A stretch of DNA of 64,000 nt, from sequence record ON323491.1, one strand, 5' to 3'. Both the position numbers and the translations under genes were made by a program. Below the pieces are notes generated by a model. That model was not told where the DNA came from and searched no databases. It worked only from the letters and a program-made list of their open reading frames with translations. Positions 7,953-54,938 of this stretch are shown in pieces; positions within the stretch are counted from its first letter, which is position 1, and every line of letters begins with the position of its first letter. The DNA is from Acinetobacter phage vB_AbaS_TCUP2199.

Positions 7953-8312
7953 ATGGATAAAATGCAATCCGTTAAGAAAGTATTCAAGACTGGTGGAGAT
8001 TTCAATTTCCCCGTCTTACTTTGGGACCTTGATGTTGAGACGAATGTTAAAACACCAGTGGATATTACTGCCAACAAGTTGACAATTTCTTGTTCAATCT
8101 TTGACAGACAGAACAAAAAATTAGCTGATGCTGTAGTTGAGCAAATTCCAACAATCCCGAATGCAGTAATTATCAAGGTTGATAGTGAAGTAACCAAGCT
8201 ATGGAAGGCTGGTGAAGGCGCTAAGTTTGATTTGAAGATTGTTAATTCAGATACAGACGATGTTCGCTATTCACAAACGGTTTACTTCGACATTGAACGA
8301 GGGCTTAGCTAA
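7953..8312 (+). CDS. Hypothetical protein (precedes the fibre-repeat gene)
   Basis: Listed ORF trimmed to its first ATG. Confidence 0.5.
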   Translation: MDKMQSVKKVFKTGGDFNFPVLLWDLDVETNVKTPVDITANKLTISCSIFDRQNKKLADAVVEQIPTIPNAVIIKVDSEVTKLWKAGEGAKFDLKIVNSDTDDVRYSQTVYFDIERGLS

Positions 8313-9910
8313 TGGCTGATAAGAATTTATTTATCGAAATTATCTGGGACCCTTCCCCTATTGCTGTCACTGAAAAAATTGCACGTCAAACATTGGTGGT
8401 TGAATTACCAATTGGCGTGATGCTTGGAGGTGGCGGTGGAGGTGGCTCAGGTGGTGACTACATTCCAACAAGTGAAAAAGGCCAAGCTGGTGGGGTGGCT
8501 GAGTTAGATAGCACTGGTAAAGTGCCAGCTTCTCAATTACCAGCAGCACAAACGGGCGACTTTATTCCTAAATCGGAAAAGGGCCAGCCTTTAGGTGTGG
8601 CAACACTTGCCGAAGATGGTTTGGTAGATTGGCGACAATTACCAGCAGGGCCAGACCTGAGTGGTTTTATCATGACTTGGCAAATGGGTCAGCCCAACGG
8701 TGTGGCTACATTAGATAGCAGCGGTTTATTAGCAGCTTATCAATTGCCAGCTTTAGATTTTATCCCGACAAGCGCCATTGGTCAGCCTTGGGGCATTCCT
8801 CAGCTAAATAGTGAGGGTAAAGTTCTTAGCTCAATGTTGCCGCCTTTTCCAGACTTGGATTTTATCCCTATGTCTTATAAAGGGCAAAATGGTGGGGTAG
8901 CTGAACTGGACTTCACTGGTAAAGTACCAACTGAACAAATTAATTTCCCAGTAACCATGGTAAATGGTAAGACTGGTAATTTGACTTTGGTAGCTGCTGA
9001 CGTTAATGCTGACCCAGTTGGAACTGCGGCCACATTATCGGCTCAAGCAAAAAACCAAGCAGTTGCACAAGTTCATGCTGAAATTGATGGTACATTATCT
9101 AACTTGCAAAACAACAAATTGGATAAGGTTGATTATGTTCAACATTTCCGAGGGTTGTTTTCAAGCTATGCAGCTTTAACAGCAGCATTACCAACGGCAT
9201 CAGTTGGTGACTATGCACATATTGACAGCGGCTCAGGCTTTGACCGTCTCTCAGCGATTTGGGATAACGACGACAATAAATGGGTTGTGAATCAGGTAAA
9301 TGTTGCACATAACACCGATGAAATGCCAGAAGGTAGTAACAACCTTTATTTCACTGGTGCTAGAACACGTGCTGTACCATTAACTGGACTTATTATTCCA
9401 AATAATAAATCTCCTATTGTTGAGAGTGATACAATTTTGCAGGCTTTAGGTAAGCTGCAAGGCAGTATTAACAATTCAGCAAGCGCTGGTACAGATGCAG
9501 TGTGGGTAGATTCAAAAACTGTCGGGAATTGGGATGCTCAAATGTATACAGACCAATTTACTCGACTTGAGTTTGCTAGATGGCAAGGCTGTCTTTGGGT
9601 ACGTGGTTGGATGTTTTTAAAGAACATCACAAGCACCACATACCCTTTTGAATTTACCAATCCTAAATATAAAATTATCAACCCATTCAACCCTAATACG
9701 GAACATGCATGGATTGAAGCTTTTTATTCAGGAAACGCCAATGGGTCGCAAACCCAAATGGTATCCTTTTTCTCAGGCGGTGTTATTAACAACGCAGCAA
9801 CAGCAGCATCTGTTCAGCAAAGGATTCGTGGCGTAATTGCAATACCACCAGCGGGAATCCTGATGTTTGTAAGGGCACAAGCGCTAGGAATACTTGCCGA
9901 CCCAAGCTAA
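8312..9910 (+). CDS. Tail-fibre-like protein: poly-Gly tract followed by five ~30-aa repeats (FIPxSEKGQxxGVAxLDxxGKVPxxQLP) and a VNGKTGNLTLVAADV motif
   Basis: The repeat architecture is read directly from the sequence and resembles the phage tail-fibre repeat family. 532 aa. Confidence 0.65.
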   Translation: MADKNLFIEIIWDPSPIAVTEKIARQTLVVELPIGVMLGGGGGGGSGGDYIPTSEKGQAGGVAELDSTGKVPASQLPAAQTGDFIPKSEKGQPLGVATLAEDGLVDWRQLPAGPDLSGFIMTWQMGQPNGVATLDSSGLLAAYQLPALDFIPTSAIGQPWGIPQLNSEGKVLSSMLPPFPDLDFIPMSYKGQNGGVAELDFTGKVPTEQINFPVTMVNGKTGNLTLVAADVNADPVGTAATLSAQAKNQAVAQVHAEIDGTLSNLQNNKLDKVDYVQHFRGLFSSYAALTAALPTASVGDYAHIDSGSGFDRLSAIWDNDDNKWVVNQVNVAHNTDEMPEGSNNLYFTGARTRAVPLTGLIIPNNKSPIVESDTILQALGKLQGSINNSASAGTDAVWVDSKTVGNWDAQMYTDQFTRLEFARWQGCLWVRGWMFLKNITSTTYPFEFTNPKYKIINPFNPNTEHAWIEAFYSGNANGSQTQMVSFFSGGVINNAATAASVQQRIRGVIAIPPAGILMFVRAQALGILADPS

Positions 9911-22870: not shown

Positions 22871-23056
22871 GGAGATAACATGTTAGTCCTTCCAGATTTA
22901 AAGCCAGAAACCTTAGTTGCCTTGGCGATTTTTGTTCTCATGTTTTGTATAGCTTGTTGGTACGAAGAACACATGGAGAAAAAGAACAAGAAAATAGCAG
23001 AGGAATCTAAGAAAAAATTTAACAAAAACAAAGGGGTAGATGAATGCAACGAATAA
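22870..23056 (+). CDS. Small membrane protein
   Basis: Trimmed from listed ORF 22841-23056; GGAGA RBS. Confidence 0.4.
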
Positions 23057-23862
23057 ATATTATTGATGGAAATAACCAGTTTTTCATCAATATGAGTCGC
23101 GCACTAAATGCTCAAGACCTTGCCCGTCGCTGCTTTGAATTACACCATGGTTATGACATTGTGTATTGGACCTTTGACGGAATTGATTCACGCAAACCAC
23201 GTCGTGATTTGTACGCTGGCTATAAAGATACTGTAGCCCGTCAAAAAGCCAAACATGATACCAACCGTTATGAATTATTAAAGAATTTTAAACACCAACA
23301 CTTACCAGCACATGGTGGTGTCATAGTTATTGAAGTTCCCTTTTTTGAAGCCGATGACGTTATCCGTAAGCTGGTCAATCATCACGCGAATGGTGACAAC
23401 CTGATAACCATTTCATCAAACGATGCCGATTTACTTGACTTGACACGGTTTAAGGGTGTGACACAGCCACAAGCTAAGTTCCCTGCAGTCTGTCAGGACC
23501 CAGTTTACTTGCCAATATACAAAACACTGGTTGGTGATACTGGTGACAATATCAAGGGCCTAAAAGGTTTTGGTGATGGTGCATGGTCCAAATTATCAGA
23601 TGGTGACATGCGTTTGATTGCTTCATGTCTATGGAATAAGATACGCATTGACCAAGATAGCGTGATGGATGATGAAAAGCTCAAAGCTAAGTTAATAGAG
23701 CATTGGGATTCTGTTGCGTTATGGTATAAGCTAGTTGACTATATTGACGTTCCAGACGATGCTATTCAAGCTAACTTGAGAATACATCCACGGAAAACTC
23801 CAAAAAACCCTGTGGCATTTGTCGATACCAAACGGCCAAGCATTTCAATGGATACGCTATGA
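23044..23862 (+). CDS. Flap endonuclease / 5'-3' exonuclease (FEN family)
   Basis: Motifs IIDGNN, EADDVI, GDTGDNIKGLKGFG. Confidence 0.75.
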   Translation: MQRINIIDGNNQFFINMSRALNAQDLARRCFELHHGYDIVYWTFDGIDSRKPRRDLYAGYKDTVARQKAKHDTNRYELLKNFKHQHLPAHGGVIVIEVPFFEADDVIRKLVNHHANGDNLITISSNDADLLDLTRFKGVTQPQAKFPAVCQDPVYLPIYKTLVGDTGDNIKGLKGFGDGAWSKLSDGDMRLIASCLWNKIRIDQDSVMDDEKLKAKLIEHWDSVALWYKLVDYIDVPDDAIQANLRIHPRKTPKNPVAFVDTKRPSISMDTL

Positions 23863-24398
23863 GTACATATACTGCAAATCGTAATAACCCTGATGTGATG
23901 AACATTTCAGGTAAACCAGCCATTCAAGCAGCAAGTGCTGAGGGCAAATCAATCCTGTTAGCAATCCTTGCGTTTGCTAAAGAGGACTCAGACAAAGGTA
24001 CTTACTTACGTTATGTACCAGAGAGCAAAGCGTGGACCGATTCTAAAGGTCATGTTGTTCTATTTAATATCGCTGACTCAGAAACCACTTCTGCAGAAGC
24101 TATCCAATTGGTTAAGCAGTTCTCAACCAAGACTGGATATGAACCCCCTGTTAAGACTCAGGTTTCAGAAGGTGGCACTTTAGCTACCGACAATGGTGAG
24201 CCTATCGCAATCAGCACCCGTGCTATTGAAGAAAGCTCAAGTGACGAAAATGACGAAACAAATAAAAATGCAGAAGTCATTGGCGTTGACCATGAAAGCA
24301 AAAAAGTAGAACAAGAACCAGTAGTAGAAAAAGAAACGGTAGCTAAGCGCACTGCCAAGGCTGTAAAACCAGCTACAGATTCAACTACTGAATCGTAG
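23859..24398 (+). CDS. Acidic hypothetical protein
   Basis: Listed ORF; ATGA overlap. Confidence 0.5.
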   Translation: MSTYTANRNNPDVMNISGKPAIQAASAEGKSILLAILAFAKEDSDKGTYLRYVPESKAWTDSKGHVVLFNIADSETTSAEAIQLVKQFSTKTGYEPPVKTQVSEGGTLATDNGEPIAISTRAIEESSSDENDETNKNAEVIGVDHESKKVEQEPVVEKETVAKRTAKAVKPATDSTTES

Positions 24399-24429
24399 CA
24401 ATAAATAGAAACAGCCGTTATCAAGTGAT

Positions 24430-24458
24430 AAACTCTCGTCAACTGACGAGAGTTTTTT
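24430..24458 (+). terminator. Intrinsic terminator AAACTCTCGTCA-act-GACGAGAGTTT followed by TTTTAT
   Basis: Read from the sequence. Confidence 0.6.
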
Positions 24459-24461
24459 ATT

Positions 24462-26561
24462 ATGGCTAATGTTATTGACCTTTTTACCAGAAAGATTAAA
24501 GACCTTCTGGTGGGTTCAGACCTTGGTGCTAACCCACATGTTTTTAAAGATGTAAAGATTCCAGTAGGTAACTTACCTTCCAACTATCGTGACATTGAAG
24601 CTCTTACATTAGAACAAATTTCAGAGCTGGCATTAGGTATGAACCCTAACGGTGGTAACTATTCAGAGGAACCACCGATTGTTTATGAAAATCTGGTGGA
24701 ACGTTTCCCTGCAGACTGCTGGACCGTAGATGGTGTCCGTAGTATGTCTTTCTGCGTGGTTGGTGAAAAGGACGATGGATTCGACGTTCACTGGACTTCA
24801 CGTCGTAAAAATGACTTTGCTGCCGTCATCTGGTTCAGCGAAGATTTAAACATGCACCCATACTTATCGTATGAAACTAAACCAGATTACCGCAACTGTA
24901 CCCTTTCTTTCTCTATTGATTTAGAAGGTCAAGTACCCCCTATTTCAGATGAGCAACTGGGCTTAGTAATGACTGTTATCACCATTAACAGCTACGGCCA
25001 ACAAGTGCCGTATTACTTACGCCTTGCCAATTTTGCAGACCCTGCAACTCTCACAGACACACATGCAGATGTAACCATTGACTGGAACACTGCCCGTTCT
25101 GGTTTCTATGCCACAGACAATTTCCCTAAAACAAATATCCAGCGTATCTTCATTGGCTGCTTAACCAATGGCTTTGACATTGACAGTACACAGCCGTTGC
25201 CTAAAGAGGAAACAGCATCTATGAAGATAACGAACATGCGCTGTACTGGTACAGAGAGCAAGTTCATTCGTAGAACCATGGCTGTGCCACAGCACACGAT
25301 TGGCATGTGTACCAGTTATGATGATAGCTATAACGTAAACCCTTACCGTATCATCAAGAACTGCTTCATGCTGGGCTATCGTGGACACATAAACCATTAC
25401 TGTGGTATGTCTCATTACTACAACCAGAAATGGAGTGAGTCACAGCTCCGCTTTGTCGTGACTAAAGTAGAGGACCGACCAGAGTACAGTTTAATCAATA
25501 AAGAAACCACGTTGTGGCATAAGTACATGGCAAAAGCCTGCAAGAAAATGTATATGCTGCCAATTTTTTCTGTCTCTTATGAAATGTTTTCGGAAGCTGC
25601 AGAATTAACTTGGACTCAACGTGACTGGAACGATAACTATGGCCGTACAGGTTATGAGCCACCAAGTTATTTATTAAGCCCATGTATCCCAGAAGCCATG
25701 AACTGGTTACAGCAAGTATTTGTTGAGTTTGCAGCTATTTCTGCGGGTGAAGGGTTAGTACCGCACCTGCAGGTAGGTGAACCATGGTGGTGGATTAACA
25801 GCGACGGTAAACCTTGTATTTATGATTACCCTACACGGGTTAAGTTTAATGCTGAGACAGGATTATTTGCGCCAGAAATCCCTAACCGTATGGACACACA
25901 CTTACTTGAACAATCACCTTACAAAGAATTTGCTGCATTCTTGCGTAAGGAATTGGGTAACTCAGTTGTGGCCGTGCGTACAGCAGTGAAACAGGTTTAT
26001 CCAGAAGCATTGGTTACAACACTATTTTTCTTACCTTCCATTCTGGATGAAGAAACCAGTGGTATTGCATCAACTATTAACTATCCAGTTGAGCAGTACA
26101 AGTACCCGAACCTTGACTTTATCCAAACTGAAACCTATGACTGGTTGATCATTGGTAAGTTTAATAAAGCCTTGCGCGGGTTCACGTCGGCCATTGATGA
26201 GTTAGGATACCCACCAGATTTGGTCCATTACTTGCTTGGCTTTGTCCCAGATGATTTCTTGGGCAAGCTCATTATCCCTAACTATGACTTGAAAAAGGAC
26301 GGGGTAAAAGTGTGGCAAGCAATCATGGGTAATGCTTACCTTGGTAAAGAATATAACGTTGCTAAGCAATATATTTGGGCCTACAACCAAGTTATGCGTG
26401 ATGGTTTAGTCATTCAGCCAGAGCTGTTCTTGCGTAAGTTCTGGATATTGAATAGCCTGTATTTAAGTCAGGTCCGTGAAGGTGAAGTATTGGGTACACC
26501 AATTGATAACCTACCTTGGAACCCTGTGCGACCACCACAGCCAGAAACTCCAAACGTATAA
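24462..26561 (+). CDS. Putative receptor-binding / tail-fibre protein (699 aa) carrying the shared N-terminal module
   Basis: N-terminal ~70 aa (…VKIPxGNxPxxY…EALTLxQI…GGG/NP) is shared with 27573-28664 and 28682-29554. Confidence 0.55.
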   Translation: MANVIDLFTRKIKDLLVGSDLGANPHVFKDVKIPVGNLPSNYRDIEALTLEQISELALGMNPNGGNYSEEPPIVYENLVERFPADCWTVDGVRSMSFCVVGEKDDGFDVHWTSRRKNDFAAVIWFSEDLNMHPYLSYETKPDYRNCTLSFSIDLEGQVPPISDEQLGLVMTVITINSYGQQVPYYLRLANFADPATLTDTHADVTIDWNTARSGFYATDNFPKTNIQRIFIGCLTNGFDIDSTQPLPKEETASMKITNMRCTGTESKFIRRTMAVPQHTIGMCTSYDDSYNVNPYRIIKNCFMLGYRGHINHYCGMSHYYNQKWSESQLRFVVTKVEDRPEYSLINKETTLWHKYMAKACKKMYMLPIFSVSYEMFSEAAELTWTQRDWNDNYGRTGYEPPSYLLSPCIPEAMNWLQQVFVEFAAISAGEGLVPHLQVGEPWWWINSDGKPCIYDYPTRVKFNAETGLFAPEIPNRMDTHLLEQSPYKEFAAFLRKELGNSVVAVRTAVKQVYPEALVTTLFFLPSILDEETSGIASTINYPVEQYKYPNLDFIQTETYDWLIIGKFNKALRGFTSAIDELGYPPDLVHYLLGFVPDDFLGKLIIPNYDLKKDGVKVWQAIMGNAYLGKEYNVAKQYIWAYNQVMRDGLVIQPELFLRKFWILNSLYLSQVREGEVLGTPIDNLPWNPVRPPQPETPNV

Positions 26562-26570
26562 GAGAAAGCT

Positions 26571-27569
26571 ATGCCTGAATATACCTTAACACCAATCCCA
26601 GATATGGTCTTATATGTGGATGGAGTCCCAGCGATAGTCCCAGCCAGTAATATCGGGGCTGCAGTCTTAAATGACTTTTACACTTACTTATTGGACCCCA
26701 GCACTGGCAATAGTGTTGGGGTAACGCTACGCTATGTTCATCCAAGTTCATCGTGGATTTTACCGAATGGTGAGCCAGCGTTGTTTAATTTGGGAATGTC
26801 AGATGAAAACTTCTTTGAGATTATTACCCAGTTAAAAACATATTCTAAAGCCAACTACCTTGTAAAACCTTTGGGTTCTTTGTGGGGCTACCTTGCAACG
26901 GATGCAGGTAATTTTTTAGAGTTAAAACCAGATGAACTTATTGAAATTAAACCGCAAGAGTTCGTGAAAGCTGGCAAAGAAGTTTACTATATTTCTAACC
27001 TAGACAATGGCTTAACCCTTAACACAGCCATGGCACAGCTTGGTGTTTTTTCTTTGCCTGAGAAAAAGAATCCGCTTCAAGATTATGCTTGGGGTGGGTA
27101 TGTGTTAAATGAAACACCACAGGATGGTAAACACTCTTTGTGGAAAGTAACGTACAAGACTGATACCAGCGAGTTTTTTATTAAACGAGCCGATCAAGTT
27201 GAACAGACTAACCCATTGTATGAAACTGATGTAACCGCAGTTGGCCTAGCAATGGACCCACAGAACAGACCACAGATTGTTTATACCATTGCTGGTGTAT
27301 CAAACATTTACTGGTATGATTTCAACCTTGGTCGTTACAACCACATGGAATTACCTGACGCGGTGAATCCGTGTATTTCAGACCTGAACCCAAACTCAGG
27401 CACTGAAATTATTTTAGGCTACCAAGTGGATAATAGTTTGATGTATCGAAAATATTCAGAAGGCTATCAGACTGAACACACCTTGGTTAGCAACCTAGCT
27501 AATGGTTTAAAGTTACATCAAATTGGTTATGCTGATAATGAAAAATTTCAATGGTTATTAAAGGGGTAA
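26571..27569 (+). CDS. Hypothetical protein inside the RBP cassette
   Basis: Listed ORF. Confidence 0.5.
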   Translation: MPEYTLTPIPDMVLYVDGVPAIVPASNIGAAVLNDFYTYLLDPSTGNSVGVTLRYVHPSSSWILPNGEPALFNLGMSDENFFEIITQLKTYSKANYLVKPLGSLWGYLATDAGNFLELKPDELIEIKPQEFVKAGKEVYYISNLDNGLTLNTAMAQLGVFSLPEKKNPLQDYAWGGYVLNETPQDGKHSLWKVTYKTDTSEFFIKRADQVEQTNPLYETDVTAVGLAMDPQNRPQIVYTIAGVSNIYWYDFNLGRYNHMELPDAVNPCISDLNPNSGTEIILGYQVDNSLMYRKYSEGYQTEHTLVSNLANGLKLHQIGYADNEKFQWLLKG

Positions 27570-27572
27570 GTT

Positions 27573-28664
27573 GTGGATAACATTGAAGAATCTGTAATAA
27601 AAGCAAGGACTTACGCCTTTTTTATGTTGGCTTTATCTGTGGATAAAAAAAACCCAGACTGGGCTGATGTGAAGATACCTGCAGGTAATTTTCCAAAAGG
27701 TTTTGAACACTGTGAAGCCCTAACATTGGGCCAAATCGTTGCCATTTTGCAAATTACTGTCAAGAAAAAATTGCAAGATATTGTAGATGAATTAAACGGT
27801 GGTGGTACAGTTAATCCGCATCCTCCAATTGAGTGTGCAAATGGTGCTTCATGGTTTGAATTTCATACTGACTTAGGTTCACAAATAGAATGGTTAGTGT
27901 CAGCTAATGGTGGGCCATGGTTAAGTATTGTTGATCATCCAGCGGTGGAATATTGGTATAACCCACAAAATTTTGGGGCCACCATGGTCATTGTTTTAAG
28001 GGAAGGATTACCACCAACTCCAATTCAACTTAAAGCAAGTTCACCTGTAGCCTTTTATGTTAATCCATCGGCTAACGTAAACGACACTGAACAGGAAAAC
28101 CAATCGTATGTCTTGTATAACAGTCAAGACGTAATAGTTGACCCAACTTTAGAAATTAATAAAGTTTATAACTCACCATACATCAATGATACCAGTACCG
28201 AGTTAGATTATTGCGTGATGTTCAATGCTGTAGACTTCTGCTTAAAATACCCAGAAGGGCCGCCAGTTGGGTGTGCAGGGGCGATTGACACCTTTAAAGC
28301 TATCTACATGACTGCTGGTGGTTTATATAATTTCTATGTTAATGACGTGGAATTTACAGGGACTAACTGGATGTTCAGGGATGACATATTTAAAGATCAT
28401 CTTGCTACTTTTGGTGTCATTTTAAACGCTTACGATCTGGACGGTAACCCAGTACCTAAAGGGGAAAACGGTAGATATGATGGCGCGTATATGGGAGAGT
28501 TAATTAACACATCCAATAATTACGTGAGAATAAAGATTTTTTGTGGGGACGCAAGTGCCATTGATAATTTTCAAAACCCTATCAACCCTGCAGCAAATTG
28601 GGATGCTGAAAACAATACTTTAACAGTATGTTTGGCCCCTCAAGGCACCACCCTAACAACCTAA
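27573..28664 (+). CDS. Putative receptor-binding / tail-fibre protein, paralog 2
   Basis: GTG start after AAGGGG; shared N-terminal module. Confidence 0.55.
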   Translation: MDNIEESVIKARTYAFFMLALSVDKKNPDWADVKIPAGNFPKGFEHCEALTLGQIVAILQITVKKKLQDIVDELNGGGTVNPHPPIECANGASWFEFHTDLGSQIEWLVSANGGPWLSIVDHPAVEYWYNPQNFGATMVIVLREGLPPTPIQLKASSPVAFYVNPSANVNDTEQENQSYVLYNSQDVIVDPTLEINKVYNSPYINDTSTELDYCVMFNAVDFCLKYPEGPPVGCAGAIDTFKAIYMTAGGLYNFYVNDVEFTGTNWMFRDDIFKDHLATFGVILNAYDLDGNPVPKGENGRYDGAYMGELINTSNNYVRIKIFCGDASAIDNFQNPINPAANWDAENNTLTVCLAPQGTTLTT

Positions 28665-28681
28665 GAATAGTTGAGAACGCC

Positions 28682-29554
28682 ATGACAGTTAGCAAACTTA
28701 TGACACGACGGATGGCTGACCTAATCACCCCGTCAAATTTAGGTGAAAACCTATTAAAATTTAATCAGGTAATTTTACCTTGTGGGCGTATGCCTGCAGG
28801 TTATGAATTTGTAGAGGGTCTAACTATCAGCCAGCTTGGTGATATTATTATTGAGCAACTAGACGTAGCTGGTCTTATTCCAGACCTCAGTGGCGGTGGC
28901 AATAACCCAAGCGAAGGTGTACCAACAGACTCGCTTACTATGAATTTCACATTCAATAATAGTGCTACTATCCCATTAAATGATGTTGAAATTTTAATGT
29001 TTGATGGTTCTGACACCATGCGGGTTAATGACACCTTCGATCTGGACCATAACCCGACACAGCCTAACTACTTTATGGCTATTGTTACTGGTCCAAAATG
29101 GGTGTTTTATAACTTCCATCCGAGTAATGCCCCAATTAAAATTGCCATTCGTCTGATTCCTGAGAATCAAAATTCGTTACAGAATATTCAATTGGTCGGA
29201 AACACTACTTTTAAATGGTTGGATGAGAACAAAGCTTATGTTGGAACATTACTCCCATTCCCTAAACCACAGCTTTCAGATGTAACTTATGACCCATCAT
29301 CTGGTTCAACTGTACTTATTGAAGGTACTGCTTTGAACCTAAAAGATGGTGCAGAATATGGGGCATACGTCACATTTCATAGGACGGATATTGACCAAAC
29401 TGTCGTATTACCATCGGCTGACACTATTACTTCTGTCAATAAAAACTTTACTATTGAAGGAGATATACCAGTTGATATGGGTCCATATTATGTGTCTTTA
29501 CATCTTAAAGATGCCACAGGTTGGCGTGACACCGTGCAGGCTGAACTTATTTAA
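28682..29554 (+). CDS. Putative receptor-binding / tail-fibre protein, paralog 3
   Basis: Trimmed to ATG 28682; shared N-terminal module. Confidence 0.5.
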   Translation: MTVSKLMTRRMADLITPSNLGENLLKFNQVILPCGRMPAGYEFVEGLTISQLGDIIIEQLDVAGLIPDLSGGGNNPSEGVPTDSLTMNFTFNNSATIPLNDVEILMFDGSDTMRVNDTFDLDHNPTQPNYFMAIVTGPKWVFYNFHPSNAPIKIAIRLIPENQNSLQNIQLVGNTTFKWLDENKAYVGTLLPFPKPQLSDVTYDPSSGSTVLIEGTALNLKDGAEYGAYVTFHRTDIDQTVVLPSADTITSVNKNFTIEGDIPVDMGPYYVSLHLKDATGWRDTVQAELI

Positions 29555-29638
29555 AGTAATGGGTCCATTTAGCAGAAAGTATTAAAAGTATACAAGGTAG
29601 TATGATATTATCAGCACATCAACTCAGGGTGTGCTGAA

Positions 29639-30061
29639 ATGTTTTTAAAATACATTGCAATCAGTTTTCTTTTGAGTGTCTTGAGCATGAATGTTCCAGC
29701 AATGGCTCAAACTAAAAACGACAGTCCAGCTACTACTTTCGTTCTCACGTATGGAAACGAATTTACCTTTGGGTTGTGTGTTTTAGTGTTAATCTTGTCC
29801 AGTTGGCTTAGTTTAAAGCTACCATCTGATGACACAGTTAAGCCAGAAATGTCCAATCAAGCCAAGATACTTTCAGCTTTAACTGGTGGAATCTTAGCGT
29901 TTATCTATTCGCTACACAAAGACCAAGGTTTAACCCTTATGAATCCTATTTGGATTGCTGTTGCTGCGATTGTACTCCCAGTTACAATTTTAACTTTACG
30001 CAGTAAATTTAAGAGATACACTGAAACTGTAGATTTCAGCAATCAACGAAAGGGTGACTAG
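29639..30061 (+). CDS. Membrane protein with an N-terminal signal-like segment; holin/spanin candidate
   Basis: Signal-like MFLKYIAISFLLSVLSMNVPAMA followed by three hydrophobic helices. Sits next to the endolysin gene. Confidence 0.45.
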   Translation: MFLKYIAISFLLSVLSMNVPAMAQTKNDSPATTFVLTYGNEFTFGLCVLVLILSSWLSLKLPSDDTVKPEMSNQAKILSALTGGILAFIYSLHKDQGLTLMNPIWIAVAAIVLPVTILTLRSKFKRYTETVDFSNQRKGD

Positions 30062-50468: not shown

Positions 50469-50497
50469 AAAAATACCGCCACTTGGCGGTATTTTTT
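50469..50497. terminator. Bidirectional intrinsic terminator AAAAATACCGCC-acttg-GCGGTATTTTTT between the convergent nrdB and tail-fibre genes
   Basis: Perfect stem with A-tract and T-tract flanks. Confidence 0.7.
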
Positions 50498-51497
50498 ATG
50501 CTACGTATTCACTTGGATTATAGTTGCCAGCAATCTGGCTCACGACACGTTCAATCATTAGGCCACTGATATGGAATTGGTTGCCAGCTTCACCGTCGCC
50601 ATTTGGATAGAAACCAATAACAGCACCGCCAGTTGTATTTGCAATAAAGCTGATAGAGTAACGAGTCATTGTTTCAGATAAAACCAATGGGTGCGGGTTG
50701 GTTACAGCAAAGTTACCATCTGCTAGTCGGATGACACAACGCATTTTTTTACCTGCAGTTGCAGCCATGGCGTAGAAGCTGTAAATATATTGAACCCCAG
50801 CTACCAGTTGGATGTTCTCGTAAGTATCTGGTGTGTCATCAAAATAAATATAAGCGTCTGGGTTAGCAGCATTGGTACACTCAATAGTCAACCGTTTTCC
50901 ACGTACATGTTTTAATGTGGTTTCATCACTTACTGTGGCCGTAACATCTGCTTTGGACCAGCTTGCAACACCAGCAAAGCTTTTGATGTAATCATTTAAA
51001 AGGTTTATGCCTGCGCCTGCTTTACTGAGTAAGCCATACATTAAGCCACGGACCTGAGAAACAGCACCAATGGTTGCAGCTAGACCATGTTCAGTCTCAG
51101 ATGCGTAAATGTCACCGCTTAAAGCAACAATACCAGTTACGCCTACGCCTGCAGCACGAATATCATTCATGGAAACGCCAGTGATTAAGCCTTGGGCATT
51201 CACTGTGATAGACGGAATTTTAATTGTGGACATGTAGGTCCCAGCAACAACCCCTGAGTTCTGCAGGGTTAAAATTGCTGATTTATTACCTGAACCATCA
51301 AAGCTGACAGAACCAGTTACTGAGCCAGAAAAAGAAAGGGTAATTTCTGTAGCCCATTTACTTGCTGACACAGCATTATCGGCAGCATTTAACTTACCTT
51401 CTTTTAAATCTTTAATGTCTTGACCAACTCTTACAGCGAGTTCGTTTACACCTACCGCTACCTGTTCGGCCGTTAGTGTTTCAATTGTGTCAGCCAT
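50496..51497 (-). CDS. Tail fibre protein
   Basis: Sits after the J-like gene; Gly/Ser/Thr-rich beta-type sequence. Confidence 0.55.
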   Translation of the reverse strand: MADTIETLTAEQVAVGVNELAVRVGQDIKDLKEGKLNAADNAVSASKWATEITLSFSGSVTGSVSFDGSGNKSAILTLQNSGVVAGTYMSTIKIPSITVNAQGLITGVSMNDIRAAGVGVTGIVALSGDIYASETEHGLAATIGAVSQVRGLMYGLLSKAGAGINLLNDYIKSFAGVASWSKADVTATVSDETTLKHVRGKRLTIECTNAANPDAYIYFDDTPDTYENIQLVAGVQYIYSFYAMAATAGKKMRCVIRLADGNFAVTNPHPLVLSETMTRYSISFIANTTGGAVIGFYPNGDGEAGNQFHISGLMIERVVSQIAGNYNPSEYVA

Positions 51498-51548: not shown

Positions 51549-54500
51549 TTAACTTGAGCTGCTGTTATAAACAGCGGTAGGGTTAAAACCGTTGGTAGAC
51601 ACCGCTGGTACAATCACCTCAGCCCATTCAGAATCTAAAGCATTGTATTCCCAATCTGGTGGGTCACCAATTACACCATTCTTATCTGAGACACGAATCT
51701 TGATCTTGGCACCAACAAAAGTTTCATCTGGGGCAAATAATATACCGCCCATACTGTTGTCAACTTCAAAGTACAAATCAAAGATACCTGAATTGGCTGG
51801 TGTACTTGCTGCTTTAATTGGTAAGTCAAGGTAACCATAAATACGATAGTCACCATCGTTATGATCTGAAATTACAGCAAAGAAAGGTGACCATGCATAT
51901 TGCTCACGGAAATACTGCTCAAATATTGGATACTGACTATAATTTGGAATTTGCACAACTAAATGTACGAATACCATCCCTTCTGGTGCAGTACGAATAT
52001 TCCAGCTTTGTTTAGCGCGAGTATATGACTCAATACCAAGGATTACTGGTTTAGGGTACTTAGCAACTGGTAAGCTGCCAGAATCATCCCCATAATAAGT
52101 CCAAGTGTCAGTTTTTTGAGTATCTACAAAACCACCGTTGGCAGCACTTGTAGCTTCATAGCGTAAACTCATTTTGTATGTGCCAGCGCCAACATACGGA
52201 ATATCGTAGTAAGTAGAATCAACTGGTACTGGTTGGTTGGCACTTGATCTATACGGAGCTGAATAGTTTACATAAGCTTCGTTATAAATTAAACCAGTGT
52301 ACGGTTGGAAGTTAGCCTGAGTAAATGCAAAACGGATACTCTTGGTCGGAGCATAATATTCAGCAGAAATAAACTTAGGTAAACCATTTTCCTGAGCTTT
52401 ACCAAGCTGAACATTATCCATGATTAATGGTTCACCTGCCTGCCCAGCTTTGTTGTATGGTGTAATCTTCAACTTCAAACTGGTTGTCTCAGGGAAAGCT
52501 GGGGCCAACACACCTTCGGTATCAAACAATATGGTTTCACGCGCTTCACCAGTTTCCTTGTTTACCCAAGTAATTTTGTACTTGTGTGCTGGGTCAATCG
52601 TATTAAACGTAATACCATAAGTTGGCTGACCTAAAGCGTTTGACAAATCACGAAGCCACAGGCGAACATCAAACGGCATACTAGGGATACGGTCACGCTT
52701 ATAGGTTAAGTCCAAACTGTTATATTTGAAATTAACCAAGCTTGGGTCATTAATATTGTCAATGGCTTGGTACTTGATCGGGGCAACAATGGCACCTTTA
52801 AACAAGAACATTTCGCCTTGAGCAACGTCTGACGAATCCGTTTGTTCAATACTGAGGACACGGAAAATTTTAGGCTGACCGTACACGCCACCTGCTAAAC
52901 CAATTGGTGCATTCTCAATACTGTTAAGGTATAAGTTTACATCATCCAATTTTTCAACTTCTGTCACCAGTAACTGGTGCGGGTTGATACTTTTCACGAA
53001 TGCAGTCATCACAGTATCCTGTGTATGGAAATACATTGTGTAAACTTCACTAGATGACATTTCAACCAAAGCATCACGAAGGGTAACCAACTGGGTTGCT
53101 GGGTCGTAACTAGAAATACGAGTACCTAAACCCCAATCCATTTCTTTATCGAAGATATAGAAATTATCATATAAATCAACAACATGACCCAAACGAGGTT
53201 GGGTGAATGTGATGAAAGTGGTTTCCTCTTTATTGGTGTACATTAAGTAAACCGCCTGACGGATAGCTTCACTTAAATTAGTTGCACCAACACATTGGAA
53301 TGCGTAAGGAATAATACCATTGACCGCTTGGCTTTCTTCATCTAAAAGAACACGACGGTCCTCTTGGTAATCGTTCGCAGCATTGGCAAAAATTACACGC
53401 ATGAAGTTATACCGTGATGAAAGGTCAGAACGGTAATAGCTTAAACCAGTTTGGAATACTGTTTCTGAACTGACAAAGAAACGAGGGGTCTTTGGTTTAT
53501 CAATAAAGAAGCGATAAACACCAAACATCTCCCGACTGGTCGCATGGAATGAACCAAGGACATATTTTAAGTATTCATCAATGTCGCGTTCAGCGGTAAT
53601 AGCTTCATTAAAAGTGTGACGAGGTTTCATTTCACCGTTAAGGTCAGGTACTTTCTCATCACAATACTTGATAGCTTCCATCAAGCTGGTGTTGTCTACA
53701 CGTAGCTGCGGCTCACTAGCTCGTTTACCCCAATCGCGGTTCATGATGATCTCACGCGCAATTAGAGCATTATTGTCGGTCCAACCTTTCTTGAATCGAC
53801 CATCCCAGATGCCTGCCCAAGTTTTGGTGATCGGATTATAGTTGACAGGAATGTCACACATTAAACCCATAATCTCAGCAGTAAAGTCTGGCACATCGTC
53901 AAAACGGTCAGTATGCTGGGCCACAACATGGCAGATAGCGGTTTTTGGATAAGCTTTTTCTGTGTCAGTAATGATAGTCACACTATCTAAACTGATTGTT
54001 TTAGATGAGAATTTCTTTTCATCAGAAGTCAATTCCTTACTACGACGAACAATTTGAACTTCCCAATCATGGTTAGCATCTGAGTCATCAAAAATAGGAA
54101 TGTTTAATTCGTAAATGTAACCTGCCGTAGTCTTACCAGTTACCACAATCATTTCATTTTGAATTTGAGAAGTAGTAGTACCCGTTGGTAATTGGCTTAA
54201 ATACTTTTCATATAAATCAACAGAATAAGCACGACGAATTAAACGACCATAGCCGCCATTCTGATACTGAATTTCTGTTTCTGCAGGTGTATCTAAGTTA
54301 CCTAAGTCAGCAGACACAATGTTTTTGAGTTCTTTTAAAGTGTTTAACTCAAAATCATATTGCTGAGCAGGGGTCATGGCATCAAAATCAAGACCTCTAT
54401 CTTTAGCAGCTTGACGAAGGGTAGCAACCTTACGCTTATATTGAATTAAAGTCTCTGTGGTTTCATTCACATAACGCCAATTAGTGTCACCAACACGACG

Positions 54501-54938
54501 ATATTTCACCTGAAAAATTACAGATGATTCATAACTGTTCTGACCATCACCAGCGGTTAATTGGTTAATGATGATACGAACATCTAAGCTTTTGATAGCG
54601 CCACGGTATTGGGCTGGTGTAACGATTGTTCGCGCAACATCTGCAGGTAAAGATAAACCTAAACTACCAGCAATAATTGAAGATTCACCGCCCGAAAAAT
54701 AACGGATAGGTTGATCATCCATATACCCTTGACGAATATTTACAGCTACGTCTTGGAAATTATACTCCCCAGTCTCAGCTACCAAAGGCAAATTATTGAT
54801 GTAGAAAGATTTTAAACCATCTTTTAATCCAAAAATGGTTCCTTCACACATACCAAATGCCAGCTCTACAATATCTTGGCTATATAAGTTATCGGCCGCA
54901 ATCGTAGGGCTAGGCGGTTGTTTTTTCTTACCACCCAT
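51549..54938 (-). CDS. Tail tip / host-specificity protein (lambda gpJ-like, 1129 aa)
   Basis: Size and position after the gpI-like gene in a lambda-like M-L-K-I-J order. Confidence 0.6.
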   Translation of the reverse strand: MGGKKKQPPSPTIAADNLYSQDIVELAFGMCEGTIFGLKDGLKSFYINNLPLVAETGEYNFQDVAVNIRQGYMDDQPIRYFSGGESSIIAGSLGLSLPADVARTIVTPAQYRGAIKSLDVRIIINQLTAGDGQNSYESSVIFQVKYRRVGDTNWRYVNETTETLIQYKRKVATLRQAAKDRGLDFDAMTPAQQYDFELNTLKELKNIVSADLGNLDTPAETEIQYQNGGYGRLIRRAYSVDLYEKYLSQLPTGTTTSQIQNEMIVVTGKTTAGYIYELNIPIFDDSDANHDWEVQIVRRSKELTSDEKKFSSKTISLDSVTIITDTEKAYPKTAICHVVAQHTDRFDDVPDFTAEIMGLMCDIPVNYNPITKTWAGIWDGRFKKGWTDNNALIAREIIMNRDWGKRASEPQLRVDNTSLMEAIKYCDEKVPDLNGEMKPRHTFNEAITAERDIDEYLKYVLGSFHATSREMFGVYRFFIDKPKTPRFFVSSETVFQTGLSYYRSDLSSRYNFMRVIFANAANDYQEDRRVLLDEESQAVNGIIPYAFQCVGATNLSEAIRQAVYLMYTNKEETTFITFTQPRLGHVVDLYDNFYIFDKEMDWGLGTRISSYDPATQLVTLRDALVEMSSSEVYTMYFHTQDTVMTAFVKSINPHQLLVTEVEKLDDVNLYLNSIENAPIGLAGGVYGQPKIFRVLSIEQTDSSDVAQGEMFLFKGAIVAPIKYQAIDNINDPSLVNFKYNSLDLTYKRDRIPSMPFDVRLWLRDLSNALGQPTYGITFNTIDPAHKYKITWVNKETGEARETILFDTEGVLAPAFPETTSLKLKITPYNKAGQAGEPLIMDNVQLGKAQENGLPKFISAEYYAPTKSIRFAFTQANFQPYTGLIYNEAYVNYSAPYRSSANQPVPVDSTYYDIPYVGAGTYKMSLRYEATSAANGGFVDTQKTDTWTYYGDDSGSLPVAKYPKPVILGIESYTRAKQSWNIRTAPEGMVFVHLVVQIPNYSQYPIFEQYFREQYAWSPFFAVISDHNDGDYRIYGYLDLPIKAASTPANSGIFDLYFEVDNSMGGILFAPDETFVGAKIKIRVSDKNGVIGDPPDWEYNALDSEWAEVIVPAVSTNGFNPTAVYNSSSS

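Follow-up and report, generated by a model that had tools for sequence, protein, structure and literature searches.

Gene content and position of the cassette

The window analysed here, the whole 64,000-nt stretch of record ON323491.1 from Acinetobacter phage vB_AbaS_TCUP2199, is 95–99% identical to the fJoAci01 (99%) and Mystique genomes, and comes from a siphophage of Acinetobacter in the StAb3/EAb13/Mystique/TCUP2199 group. Siphophage morphology has been described for Mystique and the related StAb3, and the window encodes a lambda-like J protein and a tape measure protein longer than 2000 aa. The cassette lies between replication genes, including FEN, on one side and holin-like and muramidase lysis genes on the other. 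Features are as follows (names give the length in aa):

23859–24398, plus strand: hyp179, conserved gene immediately preceding the cassette, its start overlapping the stop codon of FEN
24430–24455, plus strand: upstream hairpin, 11-bp stem and U-run UUUUUUAUU (terminator scan), ending 6 nt before the A699 ATG
24462–26561, plus strand: A699, N-module, Gly linker, NCTSP_N and TIM-barrel_NCTSP; 699 aa
24462–24662, plus strand: A699 N-module, aa 1–67, Gly linker after it
24696–25259, plus strand: A699 NCTSP_N (PF23844), aa 79–266; Pfam 1e-31, 109.8 bits
25287–26405, plus strand: A699 TIM-barrel_NCTSP (PF23845), aa 276–648; Pfam 5e-89, 299.1 bits
25404–25418, plus strand: A699 GMSHY motif, aa 315–319; exact 5-mer
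26571–27569, plus strand: B332, module 2 and tail-fibre tip domain, without N-module; 332 aa
27573–28664, plus strand: C363, C-type N-module, domain X and domain Y; GTG start; 363 aa
27573–27806, plus strand: C363 N-module (C-type), aa 1–78
28682–29554, plus strand: D290, D-type N-module, GGG linker and beta-rich body; 290 aa
28682–28909, plus strand: D290 N-module (D-type), aa 1–76, GGG linker after it
29611–29637, plus strand: downstream hairpin, 10 bp, ending directly at the holin-like ATG (29639)
50496–51497, 51549–54938 and beyond, minus strand: tail module, consisting of fibre, J-like protein and then tape measure protein

The three ORFs that a first-pass annotation had grouped by a common N-terminus (A699, C363 and D290) are present where it placed them. 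Its lengths of 699 and 363 aa are right; the third protein has 290 aa rather than 291. The D290 start at 28682 is backed by ortholog starts, while the fJoAci01 annotation uses an ATG at 28628 instead. The cassette is also, as had been described, remote from the tail genes, with about 21 kb between its end and the tail module on the minus strand.

A portable N-terminal module

Pairwise BLASTP and HMM comparisons bear out the shared N-terminus of the three proteins, a module of about 65 aa followed by a Gly-rich linker (A699 and C363, 37% identity over 60 aa, E 9e-6; A699 and D290, 25% over 133 aa, E 4e-10; C363 and D290, 36% over 50 aa, E 1e-5). Beyond it the proteins are dissimilar, as had also been proposed: all pairwise comparisons of the remaining segments gave E > 0.2. 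The core motif quoted earlier for the module fits in general, but the D290 copy only loosely (QVILPCGRMPAGY...EGLTISQL). Alignment invariants, in A699 numbering, include R10, V31, P34, G36, P39, E46, T49, Q52 and GG64-65. A module HMM, run on the window, the remainder of fJoAci01 and the tail genes of N4 after six-frame translation, matched exactly three ORFs, A699, C363 and D290, with E values from 1e-34 to 1e-37 and the next best at 0.16; N4 gp64, gp65, gp66 and gp67 gave no match. Proteins of the rV5-like locus gave none either, A699 aa 1–78 has no Pfam match, PHROG returned nothing with E < 0.1, and the best PDB profile matches (E 1.8) were to unrelated proteins.

Outside this phage, a search of 1.84 billion protein representatives placed the module in about 51 clusters of proteins from 67 to 1132 aa long, always at the extreme N-terminus (module start at aa 1–11). 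Its partners comprise at least 10 unrelated C-terminal domain types, mostly glycan-acting, among them the NCTSP TIM barrel, CotH, DUF285/LRR_5, BNR sialidase-like, GDSL/SGNH, SASA esterase, DUF4886, DUF5040, peptidase M14 and PHROG tail-fibre families. It also occurs alone, in anchor-only ORFs of 70–85 aa, which are intact in relatives L008 and L011 (52% identical to each other), with another in L017; these genes are apparently selected.

Identities between the paralogs are low (25–37%), as they would be if the common N-terminus were a chance similarity or compositional artefact. The probability of this is negligible: the matches consistently start in register at residue 1, 11 columns are invariant over five module sequences covering the three paralog types, the profile picks out only these ORFs genome-wide, and the module is N-terminal in every one of the roughly 51 independent clusters. 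Sequences outside the training alignments also match all three copies, including a metagenomic 712-aa protein (E 9e-9, 2e-5 and 5e-5). The genome scan, the clusters and these independent metagenomic matches already refute that reading, and at the level of sequence the comparisons show the module to be a portable N-terminal unit. As it has no Pfam, PHROG or PDB relative, it is from architecture alone that we infer docking to the virion.

A hypervariable slot in related phages

The gene order FEN, hyp135 to hyp179, one to seven variable genes, holin-like gene, muramidase is the same in the window and in each of the six metagenomic loci that were compared (seven records). Comparison across relatives, which the first-pass annotation had suggested, thus points to a hypervariable host-range slot: in every syntenic relative examined, the content between the hyp179-like and holin-like genes varies, while the muramidase and the flanking membrane proteins of 140 and 101 aa are conserved in all of them. 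Compared with EAb13, A699 is 96% and D290 84% conserved (flanking genes, 88–92%), and B332 and C363 have conserved N-termini with C-terminal parts that are swapped or diverged.

The N-modules fall into three subtypes (A, C and D), old paralogs each with its own orthologs. The window, EAb13, fJoAci04, Mystique and L011 each have all three. L013, L015 and L016 have one A-type module and nothing else, and L008 has C+D+D with no A-type; the 699-aa gene is absent from it altogether, so A699 is not essential to the lineage.

The intervening gene, B332, lacks the N-module and instead begins with a second one (module 2, aa 1–113) in common with hyp179, whose first ~110 aa are homologous to it (BLASTP, 36% over 107 aa, E 2e-9). 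The C-terminal part of hyp179 is acidic and of low complexity, and orthologs of 135–162 aa occupy the same place in L008, L011, L013, L015 and L016. T5, G18, A25, L50, Y52, W59, L68 and F69 are invariant in a 10-sequence alignment, and hyp179 has no match in Pfam, PHROG or PDB. The B332 tip domain covers aa ~150–331 and matches phrog_4950 ("tail fiber", 9e-26) over aa 165–331; the C-terminal half resembles tail fibre genes of Xanthomonas, Xylella and Stenotrophomonas podophages. B332 corresponds to the N-terminal part of a 274-aa L008 protein plus a separate 206-aa L008 protein, and is a fusion of parts encoded separately in relatives. Its N-terminus is 90% identical to that of EAb13, its C-terminus 32–40%.

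C363, which is 100% identical to a TCUP2199 protein, shows shuffling of a similar kind. Domain X (aa ~85–228) is absent from EAb13 and domain Y (aa 229–363) is shared with EAb13 aa 96–224, giving the order N-X-Y here and N-Y-Z there. Homologs of both C363 and D290 are confined to this phage group, and AF2 models from their shallow alignments have mean pLDDT of 40.3 and 49.6, respectively, with block means of ~66–80 only over D290 aa ~201–280. The body of D290 is beta-rich, probably tandem beta-sandwiches; Foldseek gave only generic Ig/FN3-like matches (TM 0.2–0.3) from the low-pLDDT model.

The hairpins

The upstream hairpin looks like an intrinsic terminator by its GC-containing stem and U-run, and had been taken for the cassette's own; it lies upstream of the first gene, however, and so does not terminate the cassette. 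In EAb13, L008, L011, L013, L015 and L016, an equivalent hairpin of 11–12 bp with a U-run directly precedes the first gene of the cassette. Three different stem sequences occur among these six relatives, so that stem changes have been compensated. The 3' arm holds the sole Shine-Dalgarno-like sequence (GAGAG) for A699. Expression of the cassette would probably involve read-through of, or initiation around, this conserved hairpin, which might sequester the A699 ribosome-binding site and thus keep the low-copy cassette proteins low or delayed. The downstream hairpin, with a stem (CAGCACAUC...GGUGUGCUG) kept in EAb13, L008, L011 and L017, delimits the variable slot on its downstream side.

A699 and the N4-type receptor module

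A699 passes both NCTSP Pfam models in order (gathering cut-off 27 bits for each) and is a member of that family. Homologs occur in 327 phage records, among them lateral tail fibres of rV5-like and phi92-like type, and in PDB it matches N4 gp64 (1e-39, aa 344–651) and N4 gp65 (5e-13, aa 75–151 and 226–321). These are proven virion receptor-binding proteins, as is the rV5/phi92 lateral tail fibre, and the earlier view of A699 as a protein of receptor-binding type is supported by this homology.

N4 is a podovirus (Schitoviridae) with a non-contractile sheath of gp65, the receptor-binding protein (1382 aa), and gp64 (417 aa; PDB 9LC0, 9YF4/5); D-domains of the gp65 body wrap the short tail tube and hold the plug, gp53. 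PF23844 and PF23845 apply both to gp65/gp64 and to A699, in which aa 75–321, GMSHY included, correspond to gp65 aa 52–416 and aa 344–651 to gp64 aa 112–410. The Pfam TIM-barrel profile is split in N4, with positions 4–46 in gp65 (aa 374–416) and 60–347 in gp64 (aa 109–407), whereas A699 is one chain rather than a heterodimer of gp65 (major) and gp64 (minor). A699 also differs in its N-module, which replaces the gp65 N-terminus and shows no similarity to it, and in lacking gp65 residues ~417–1382, including the plug-binding D9-D10 (aa 1183–1382). The single chain, the missing gp65 body and the siphovirus context set it apart from the N4-type non-contractile tail sheath, and since the phage is a long-tailed siphovirus the "tail sheath" annotation of this gene in fJoAci01 is a misnomer.

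Another likeness in build is the Vequintavirus/Justusliebigvirus lateral tail fibre "with glycosidase and deacetylase domains" (RudolfGeigy bas52_0033; phi92 Gp142 according to a preprint). With 690 aa to the 699 of A699, it has NCTSP_N and the TIM barrel on a single chain, GMSHY, and 32–35% identity over ~90% of the protein. It differs in its N-terminal ~100 aa, a Calx-beta domain rather than the N-module, and is encoded within the structural module and carried on a myovirus baseplate. The other N-terminus on the same body, in full-length rV5-like homologs, marks the N-terminus as the lineage-specific part.

GMSHY aligns with gp65 aa 410–414 and RudolfGeigy aa 337–341. A699, N4 gp65 and the rV5-like fibre have it letter for letter, whereas the Njord and Goslar homologs read GISNY and GMSHF. 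A preprint reports this 5-mer, within a conserved small domain, as the predictor of NGR use, derived from E. coli phages only. N4 and Vequintavirinae, which have the NCTSP domain in common, are wecB/NGR-dependent; Vequintavirus/Justusliebigvirus phages bypass O-antigen via NGR and have very broad host recognition. The corresponding Acinetobacter polysaccharide is PGR, a ManNAc-containing, N4-receptor-like exopolysaccharide needed for StAb3 adsorption, and both systems rely on a host exopolysaccharide of ManNAc type made by an NfrB/WecB-like locus. Deletion of pgrD in the host abolishes adsorption of StAb3 (96% ANI to EAb13), and carriage of PGR correlates with susceptibility to EAb13 and Mystique. 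PGR was found genetically in 2025, in a paper that names no receptor-binding protein. Given the likeness to gp65/gp64, the GMSHY motif and the StAb3-like need for PGR, A699 is predicted to bind PGR, as a candidate PGR-binding or PGR-processing receptor-binding protein. Against an inference of the GMSHY/NGR type, one study reported LPS use by an N4-like phage of Achromobacter with a tail sheath protein 54% identical to gp65 (PMC5862860).

Possible roles of the cassette

The cassette at 24462–29554 is probably a host-range (receptor-binding protein) locus in which the N-module anchors varied bodies and A699 recognises PGR. One N-terminus is found with unrelated C-termini within the genome, and distal domains vary across relatives in a syntenic slot, as in modular receptor-binding proteins. 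The N-module with its flexible Gly-rich linker would serve as a lineage-specific anchor of receptor-binding or glycan-processing bodies on the virion; particle data for the lineage comprise cryo-EM of Mystique, which resolved the head and tail tube only, and an SDS gel of TCUP2199. A699 would recognise and possibly process PGR, and its 96% conservation would match a conserved receptor and a broad host range. B332, C363 and D290 may act as accessory adhesins, with distal domains exchanged between close relatives, that probably adjust attachment to capsule and other variable surface structures. The portable module, the hypervariable slot, the swaps relative to EAb13 and the A699 homology thus favour the interchangeable receptor-binding proteins first proposed; that they dock to a single adaptor site is doubtful, as the copies represent three old paralogous subtypes with orthologs of their own.

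Several receptor-binding proteins per genome, with a conserved N-terminal attachment domain, exchangeable C-terminal enzymatic or binding domains and horizontal swaps of distal domains, are familiar from G7C gp66/gp63.1, CBA120 TSP1-4, DT57C LtfA/LtfB, K1-5/SP6 and the Friunavirus tailspikes. The present cassette differs from these in lying outside the structural module, next to lysis genes, in having three paralogous anchor subtypes and anchor-only genes, and in an N-module with no sequence relationship to described attachment domains detectable in Pfam, PHROG or PDB.

The first three of those systems are also the likeness for a branched or hetero-oligomeric fibre, in which A, C and D modules would bind each other, only one would touch the tail with the others hanging from it, and the anchor-only genes would encode hub partners. 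Co-occurrence of the three old subtypes in five phages or loci speaks for this, as do the intact anchor-only ORFs, which argue for selection on the module alone; L013, L015 and L016 show that a single A-type module can function by itself, and L008 manages without one. An obligate 1:1:1 trimer of A, C and D modules is excluded by these same four relatives; optional branching seems rather unlikely. Less likely still is a non-virion role, with soluble polysaccharide-acting proteins made together with the lysis gene products and set free at burst, the N-module being an oligomerisation or localisation tag; such enzymes could clear neighbouring cells of exopolysaccharide or capsule, or keep phages from re-adsorbing to debris. 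The setting between replication and holin/endolysin genes, 21 kb from the structural module, would suit this, and many of the fused domains are enzymes (esterases, sialidase-like, a peptidase). However, the closest characterised A699 homologs are virion components, gp64/gp65 in solved N4 virion structures, and the rV5-like fibre genes sit among baseplate and tail-fibre genes; the B332 tip matches tail fibre genes; and attached receptor-binding proteins typically combine a conserved N-terminal with a variable C-terminal part. Since StAb3 depends on PGR for adsorption, the glycan must be bound by a protein of the virion, for which A699 is the only N4-like candidate.

A699 is a specific candidate for the PGR binder, which makes the question testable by knockout, binding assay and domain swap, and through it three morphologically different phage groups would be linked by one receptor module. 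StAb3, EAb13, Mystique and TCUP2199 infect 85–91% of tested A. baumannii isolates, a coverage exceptional for this host that makes them phage-therapy candidates, and the anchor module with its variable slot would be a natural engineering site for retargeting.

More speculatively, and with a rather low probability, the N-module could be an undescribed docking system whose three ancient subtypes and anchor-only mini-genes form a hetero-oligomeric hub, maybe at the neck rather than the tail tip, carrying an unsplit, ancestral-like N4 sheath module that binds PGR and enzymatically "reels along" it through the capsule. A siphophage, a podophage and myophages would then have one portable receptor module for one conserved exopolysaccharide class, and the N4 gp64/gp65 heterodimer would have arisen by fission of such a gene. 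A comparison for placement at the neck is N4, where gp65 and gp66 are hung from the head-tail adaptor. In TEM of TCUP2199, particles were noted with the tail facing away from the cell.

Genomic setting of the cassette

The layout given in the first-pass annotation stands. According to the fJoAci01 annotation and the ORF lists, the cassette lies in a plus-strand block, ~21 kb from the minus-strand structural block, in the order helicase, FEN, hyp179, four cassette genes, holin-like genes, muramidase, DNA polymerase, and onward.

Features of the window referred to in the text

8312-9910, fibre-like gene (532 aa) with tail-fibre repeats, among the early genes and outside the structural module
23044-23862, plus strand, FEN (fJoAci01 annotation, ORF lists)
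23859-24398, plus strand, hyp179, carrying module 2
24430-24455, plus strand, hairpin of 11 bp followed by a U-run, ending 6 nt before the ATG of the 699-aa gene
24462-26561, plus strand, A699 (699 aa), beginning with the N-module
26571-27569, plus strand, B332, beginning with module 2 (~110 aa; aa 1-113, 26571-26909)
27573-28664, plus strand, C363 (363 aa), beginning with the N-module
28682-29554, plus strand, D290 (290 aa), beginning with the N-module
29611-29637, second hairpin, 10 bp (CAGCACAUC...GGUGUGCUG), ending directly at the holin-like start codon (29639)
50496-51497, minus strand, 333-aa fibre, start of the structural block
51549-54938, minus strand, J-like protein (phrog_31, E 1e-78)
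Minus-strand structural block, minus strand, tape measure protein (>2000 aa)

Relatives described in the literature are siphophages, long-tailed and with very broad host ranges. Over 24000-30000, megablast gives 99.0% identity to fJoAci01 at full length, 95.4% to Mystique, and ~87% over 70% of the query to EAb13 and fJoAci04. C363 is 100% identical to a protein of TCUP2199, a phage that the StAb3 paper puts at ~77% ANI to the EAb13 branch (StAb3); the match would fit either an exchange of cassette genes in recent times or a window more closely related to TCUP2199.

A further fibre-like gene proposed among the early genes, at 8312-9910, is borne out by its product, which has a 38-aa N-terminus, a poly-Gly linker, five copies of the tail-fibre repeat DFIPxSxKGQxxGVAxLDxxGKVPxxQLP, and a C-terminal phrog_34369 domain. 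It has neither an N-module nor a PDB match.

A shared N-terminal module

The proposal that three cassette proteins share an N-terminus and differ behind it was confirmed by pairwise BLASTP, by a profile scan, and by a metagenomic protein that was absent from all alignments and matches all three copies. A699, C363, and D290 are alike at their N-termini only (E 9e-6, 4e-10, and 1e-5; all other segments E >0.2), and pairwise BLASTP finds no similarity of B332 to any of them. The module is ~65 aa long, with a Gly-rich linker at its end and invariant R10, V31, P34, G36, P39, E46, T49, and Q52 in the alignment. The core motif first quoted for all three copies fits that of D290 only loosely, and this protein has 290 aa rather than 291, its start at 28682 being supported by orthologs. 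Among six-frame ORFs from the window, the remaining fJoAci01 genome, and the N4 tail region, the N-module profile matches exactly three, namely A699, C363, and D290. A likeness to the N-termini of phage N4 gp64, gp65, gp66, and gp67 was therefore rejected, as the HMM scan included these ORFs and gave no match, and the module has no relative in Pfam, PHROG, or PDB.

Word-indexed homolog searches returned just two to four proteins apiece. When 1.84 billion representative proteins were searched with the profile, 52 clusters came up at E <= 0.001, 51 of them credible; in every credible cluster the module starts at residue 1-11, in proteins of 67 to 1132 aa. Behind it, in the 36 members that reach 150 aa, are found the NCTSP TIM barrel, CotH, DUF285/LRR_5, BNR sialidase-like, GDSL/SGNH, SASA carbohydrate esterase, DUF4886, DUF5040, and peptidase M14 domains, as well as several PHROG “tail fiber” families. 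Among 50,697 records, the cultured phages with an N-module are fJoAci01, fJoAci04, EAb13, and Mystique only; a scan of IMG/VR with the module gave no match.

The N-modules fall into three old subtypes, with 47-58% identity among same-subtype orthologs versus 25-37% among paralogs in one genome. The A-type is found on long proteins, encoded by the first cassette gene wherever the position could be seen; the C-type is often alone; and the D-type is on proteins of 200-345 aa. Genes encoding the N-module alone (71-82 aa) are intact inside long contigs of three metagenomic loci, L008 (10001-10219), L011 (10001-10249), and L017 (3067-3282). Those of L008 and L011 are 52% identical, which argues for selection on the module by itself. 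The representative library has ~10 more short clusters of this kind, some of which may be contig-end fragments.

A hypervariable slot between conserved flanks

Six metagenomic loci (seven records) were compared, one of which, L017, starts inside the slot and contributes the downstream flank only. Where the flanks are on the contig, the gene order is helicase, FEN, a hypothetical gene of 135 to 179 aa, the variable genes, a holin-like gene of 137-142 aa, a gene of 87-102 aa, muramidase, and DNA polymerase A. Between the flanks there is anything from one gene, in L015 (996 aa) and L016 (1132 aa), to seven, in L011, and the flanking holin-like proteins remain 51-70% identical. With a fixed order, conserved flanks, and one to seven genes between them, the slot is hypervariable, and its main proteins start with the N-module, a real and portable N-terminal unit of this host-range slot. 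The idea of an obligate heterotrimer, implied if each cassette had exactly three N-modules, fails on L013, L015, and L016, with one module each.

EAb13 allows a comparison at closer range. A699 is 96% identical (FEN 88%, endolysin 92%) and D290 is 84% identical throughout. In B332 the N-terminus is 90% and the C-terminus 32-40% identical; in C363 the N-module is 62-78% and one domain 60% identical, with a different second domain, so that the domain order is N-X-Y in the window and N-Y-Z in EAb13. The distal parts of B332 and C363 thus differ, and their N-termini are kept. Such a set, with one conserved specificity and several exchangeable ones, is what receptor-binding proteins usually show. 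A paper on host adaptation of an EAb13-like phage describes changes, again frameshift indels, in a tail gene of the minus strand and is uninformative for the cassette.

In the Mystique record (PQ438181), FEN and the 699-aa and 363-aa genes are split by +1 (once +3) indels in homopolymer runs, at the equivalents of window positions 23340, 23802, 25564, 28461, 28537, and 30227. The split 699-aa gene could be read as a sign of dispensability; this was rejected, since these are homopolymer +1 indels and FEN and C363 are disrupted too. The breaks are most likely sequencing errors, and the Mystique gene count of 154 is therefore probably inflated.

A699 and the phage N4 receptor-binding apparatus

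A699 has NCTSP_N (aa 79-266) and TIM-barrel_NCTSP (aa 276-648) domains, both far over the Pfam threshold, and its only matches in PDB are to phage N4, namely gp64 (E 1e-39, aa 344-651) and gp65 (aa 75-151 and 226-321). N4 gp65, the “non-contractile tail sheath”, is a known receptor-binding protein, and the N4 sheath is a gp64-gp65 heterodimer. By homology, A699 is a member of this gp65/gp64 (NCTSP) family. Relative to gp65 it is short of ~970 residues, among them the plug-binding D9-D10 domains; since these are missing and the phage is a siphovirus, the fJoAci01 label “non-contractile tail sheath protein” is not to be taken literally.

In N4 the TIM-barrel_NCTSP profile is divided between two chains, with positions 4-46 in gp65 (aa 374-416) and 60-347 in gp64 (aa 109-407) by Pfam, whereas A699 has it unbroken, as does a 690-aa protein, the lateral tail fibre of RudolfGeigy, an rV5-like phage. 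Because of this, the N4 heterodimer appears to rebuild one domain, which suggests an origin by gene fission or insertion. The rV5-like fibre differs from A699 at its N-terminus, having a Calx-beta domain in place of the N-module. An N-module had been considered there, as tblastn alignments begin at aa 10, and was rejected (module HMM E 0.7). Judging from these alignments, the body is common to the two proteins and the N-terminus is specific to the lineage of each phage type, as would be expected of an attachment domain.

Several published observations bear on the receptor. The BASEL study noted a predicted deacetylase-like domain common to N4 Gp64 and the conserved Vequintavirinae lateral tail fibre, and found both N4 and Vequintavirinae to be wecB-dependent, a dependence assigned in later work to NGR, the glycan receptor of N4. 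A 2026 preprint reports that a 5-mer, GMSHY, predicts NGR use and sits in a small domain common to N4 Gp65 and the myovirus fibre. In A699, GMSHY lies at aa 315-319 and lines up with the motifs of gp65 and RudolfGeigy, and it is also found in the EAb13 and L011 orthologs; the homologs of Njord (GISNY) and Goslar (GMSHF) do not have the exact motif. It recurs in Acinetobacter Lokivirus IMEAB3, a 43-kb siphophage unrelated to the window phage, whose gene 26 product (903 aa) has a TIM-barrel region as in A699 and an exact GMSHY at aa 390, so that this phage may also use PGR, the N4-receptor-like ManNAc glycan.

Genes for NfrB-, WecB-, and PgaB-like proteins make up the PGR locus, which those who discovered it likened to the receptor locus for N4. 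Susceptibility to EAb13 and Mystique tracks an intact PGR locus, and adsorption of StAb3 (96% ANI to EAb13) fails on a pgrD deletion mutant. The PGR paper does not name the receptor-binding protein and does not mention gp65. Given its NCTSP homology and the N4-like receptor used by its relatives, A699 is a strong candidate for the PGR-recognising protein. Published TEM of TCUP2199 (PMC9228384) includes particles with the tail facing away from the cell, which would fit head-proximal (neck) fibres, although this is anecdotal.

Several receptor-binding proteins on a common anchor is a well-known design. Four points are new here: the putative N-module anchor family; its division into three subtypes, together with the genes that encode the anchor alone; a cassette placed outside the structural module; and an N4-type receptor module in a single chain, on a siphophage with an N4-like receptor.

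The other cassette proteins and hyp179

B332 consists of module 2 and a tip domain that also occurs in podophages of Xanthomonas, Xylella, and Stenotrophomonas, in their tail fibre genes. Its N-terminus and that of hyp179 are 36% identical over 107 aa (E 2e-9), and module 2 is also homologous to separate genes in L008 and L011, where the parts of B332 are separate genes with a 326-329-aa “tail fiber” (phrog_4176) gene between them. Orthologs of hyp179 (135-162 aa) are present in every relative, including those with single-gene cassettes; its C-terminus is acidic and of low complexity. This protein might be an adaptor or a chaperone, or have some unrelated role.

Homologs of C363 and D290 were found in this lineage only. 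AlphaFold2 models of D290 (three-sequence alignment, mean pLDDT 49.6) and C363 (two sequences, mean pLDDT 40.3) were unusable, with the N-module below 40 in both. Only the final ~90 residues of D290 reach block means of ~66-80; there the low-confidence model is beta-sandwich-like, and Foldseek with this model (mean pLDDT 49.6) returned generic Ig/FN3 matches only.

Hairpins flanking the cassette

The hairpin at 24430-24455, first taken as the cassette’s own terminator, sits upstream of it. The only Shine-Dalgarno-like sequence is in its 3' arm. An equivalent hairpin with a U-run is found at the same site, 3-8 nt before the first-gene ATG, in EAb13, L008, L011, L013, L015, and L016. The stems come in three versions (e.g., CUCUCGUC, CUCACAUC, and UACCUCCAA) with arms that are still complementary, and the 3' arm has a Shine-Dalgarno-like GAGAG, GUGAG, or GGAGG across versions; this comparison is of individual folds, as MAFFT/RNAalifold set the stems out of register. 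The conservation of the hairpin and U-run, with a Shine-Dalgarno-like sequence in the 3' arm, suggests a combined role: it most likely terminates or attenuates the transcript of FEN and hyp179 and hides the ribosome-binding site of the gene that opens the cassette. Sigma-70-like promoters were not in excess in the region (22 sites versus 23.2 expected). The second hairpin, at 29611-29637, is conserved in the window, EAb13, L008, L011, and L017, and may control translation of the holin.
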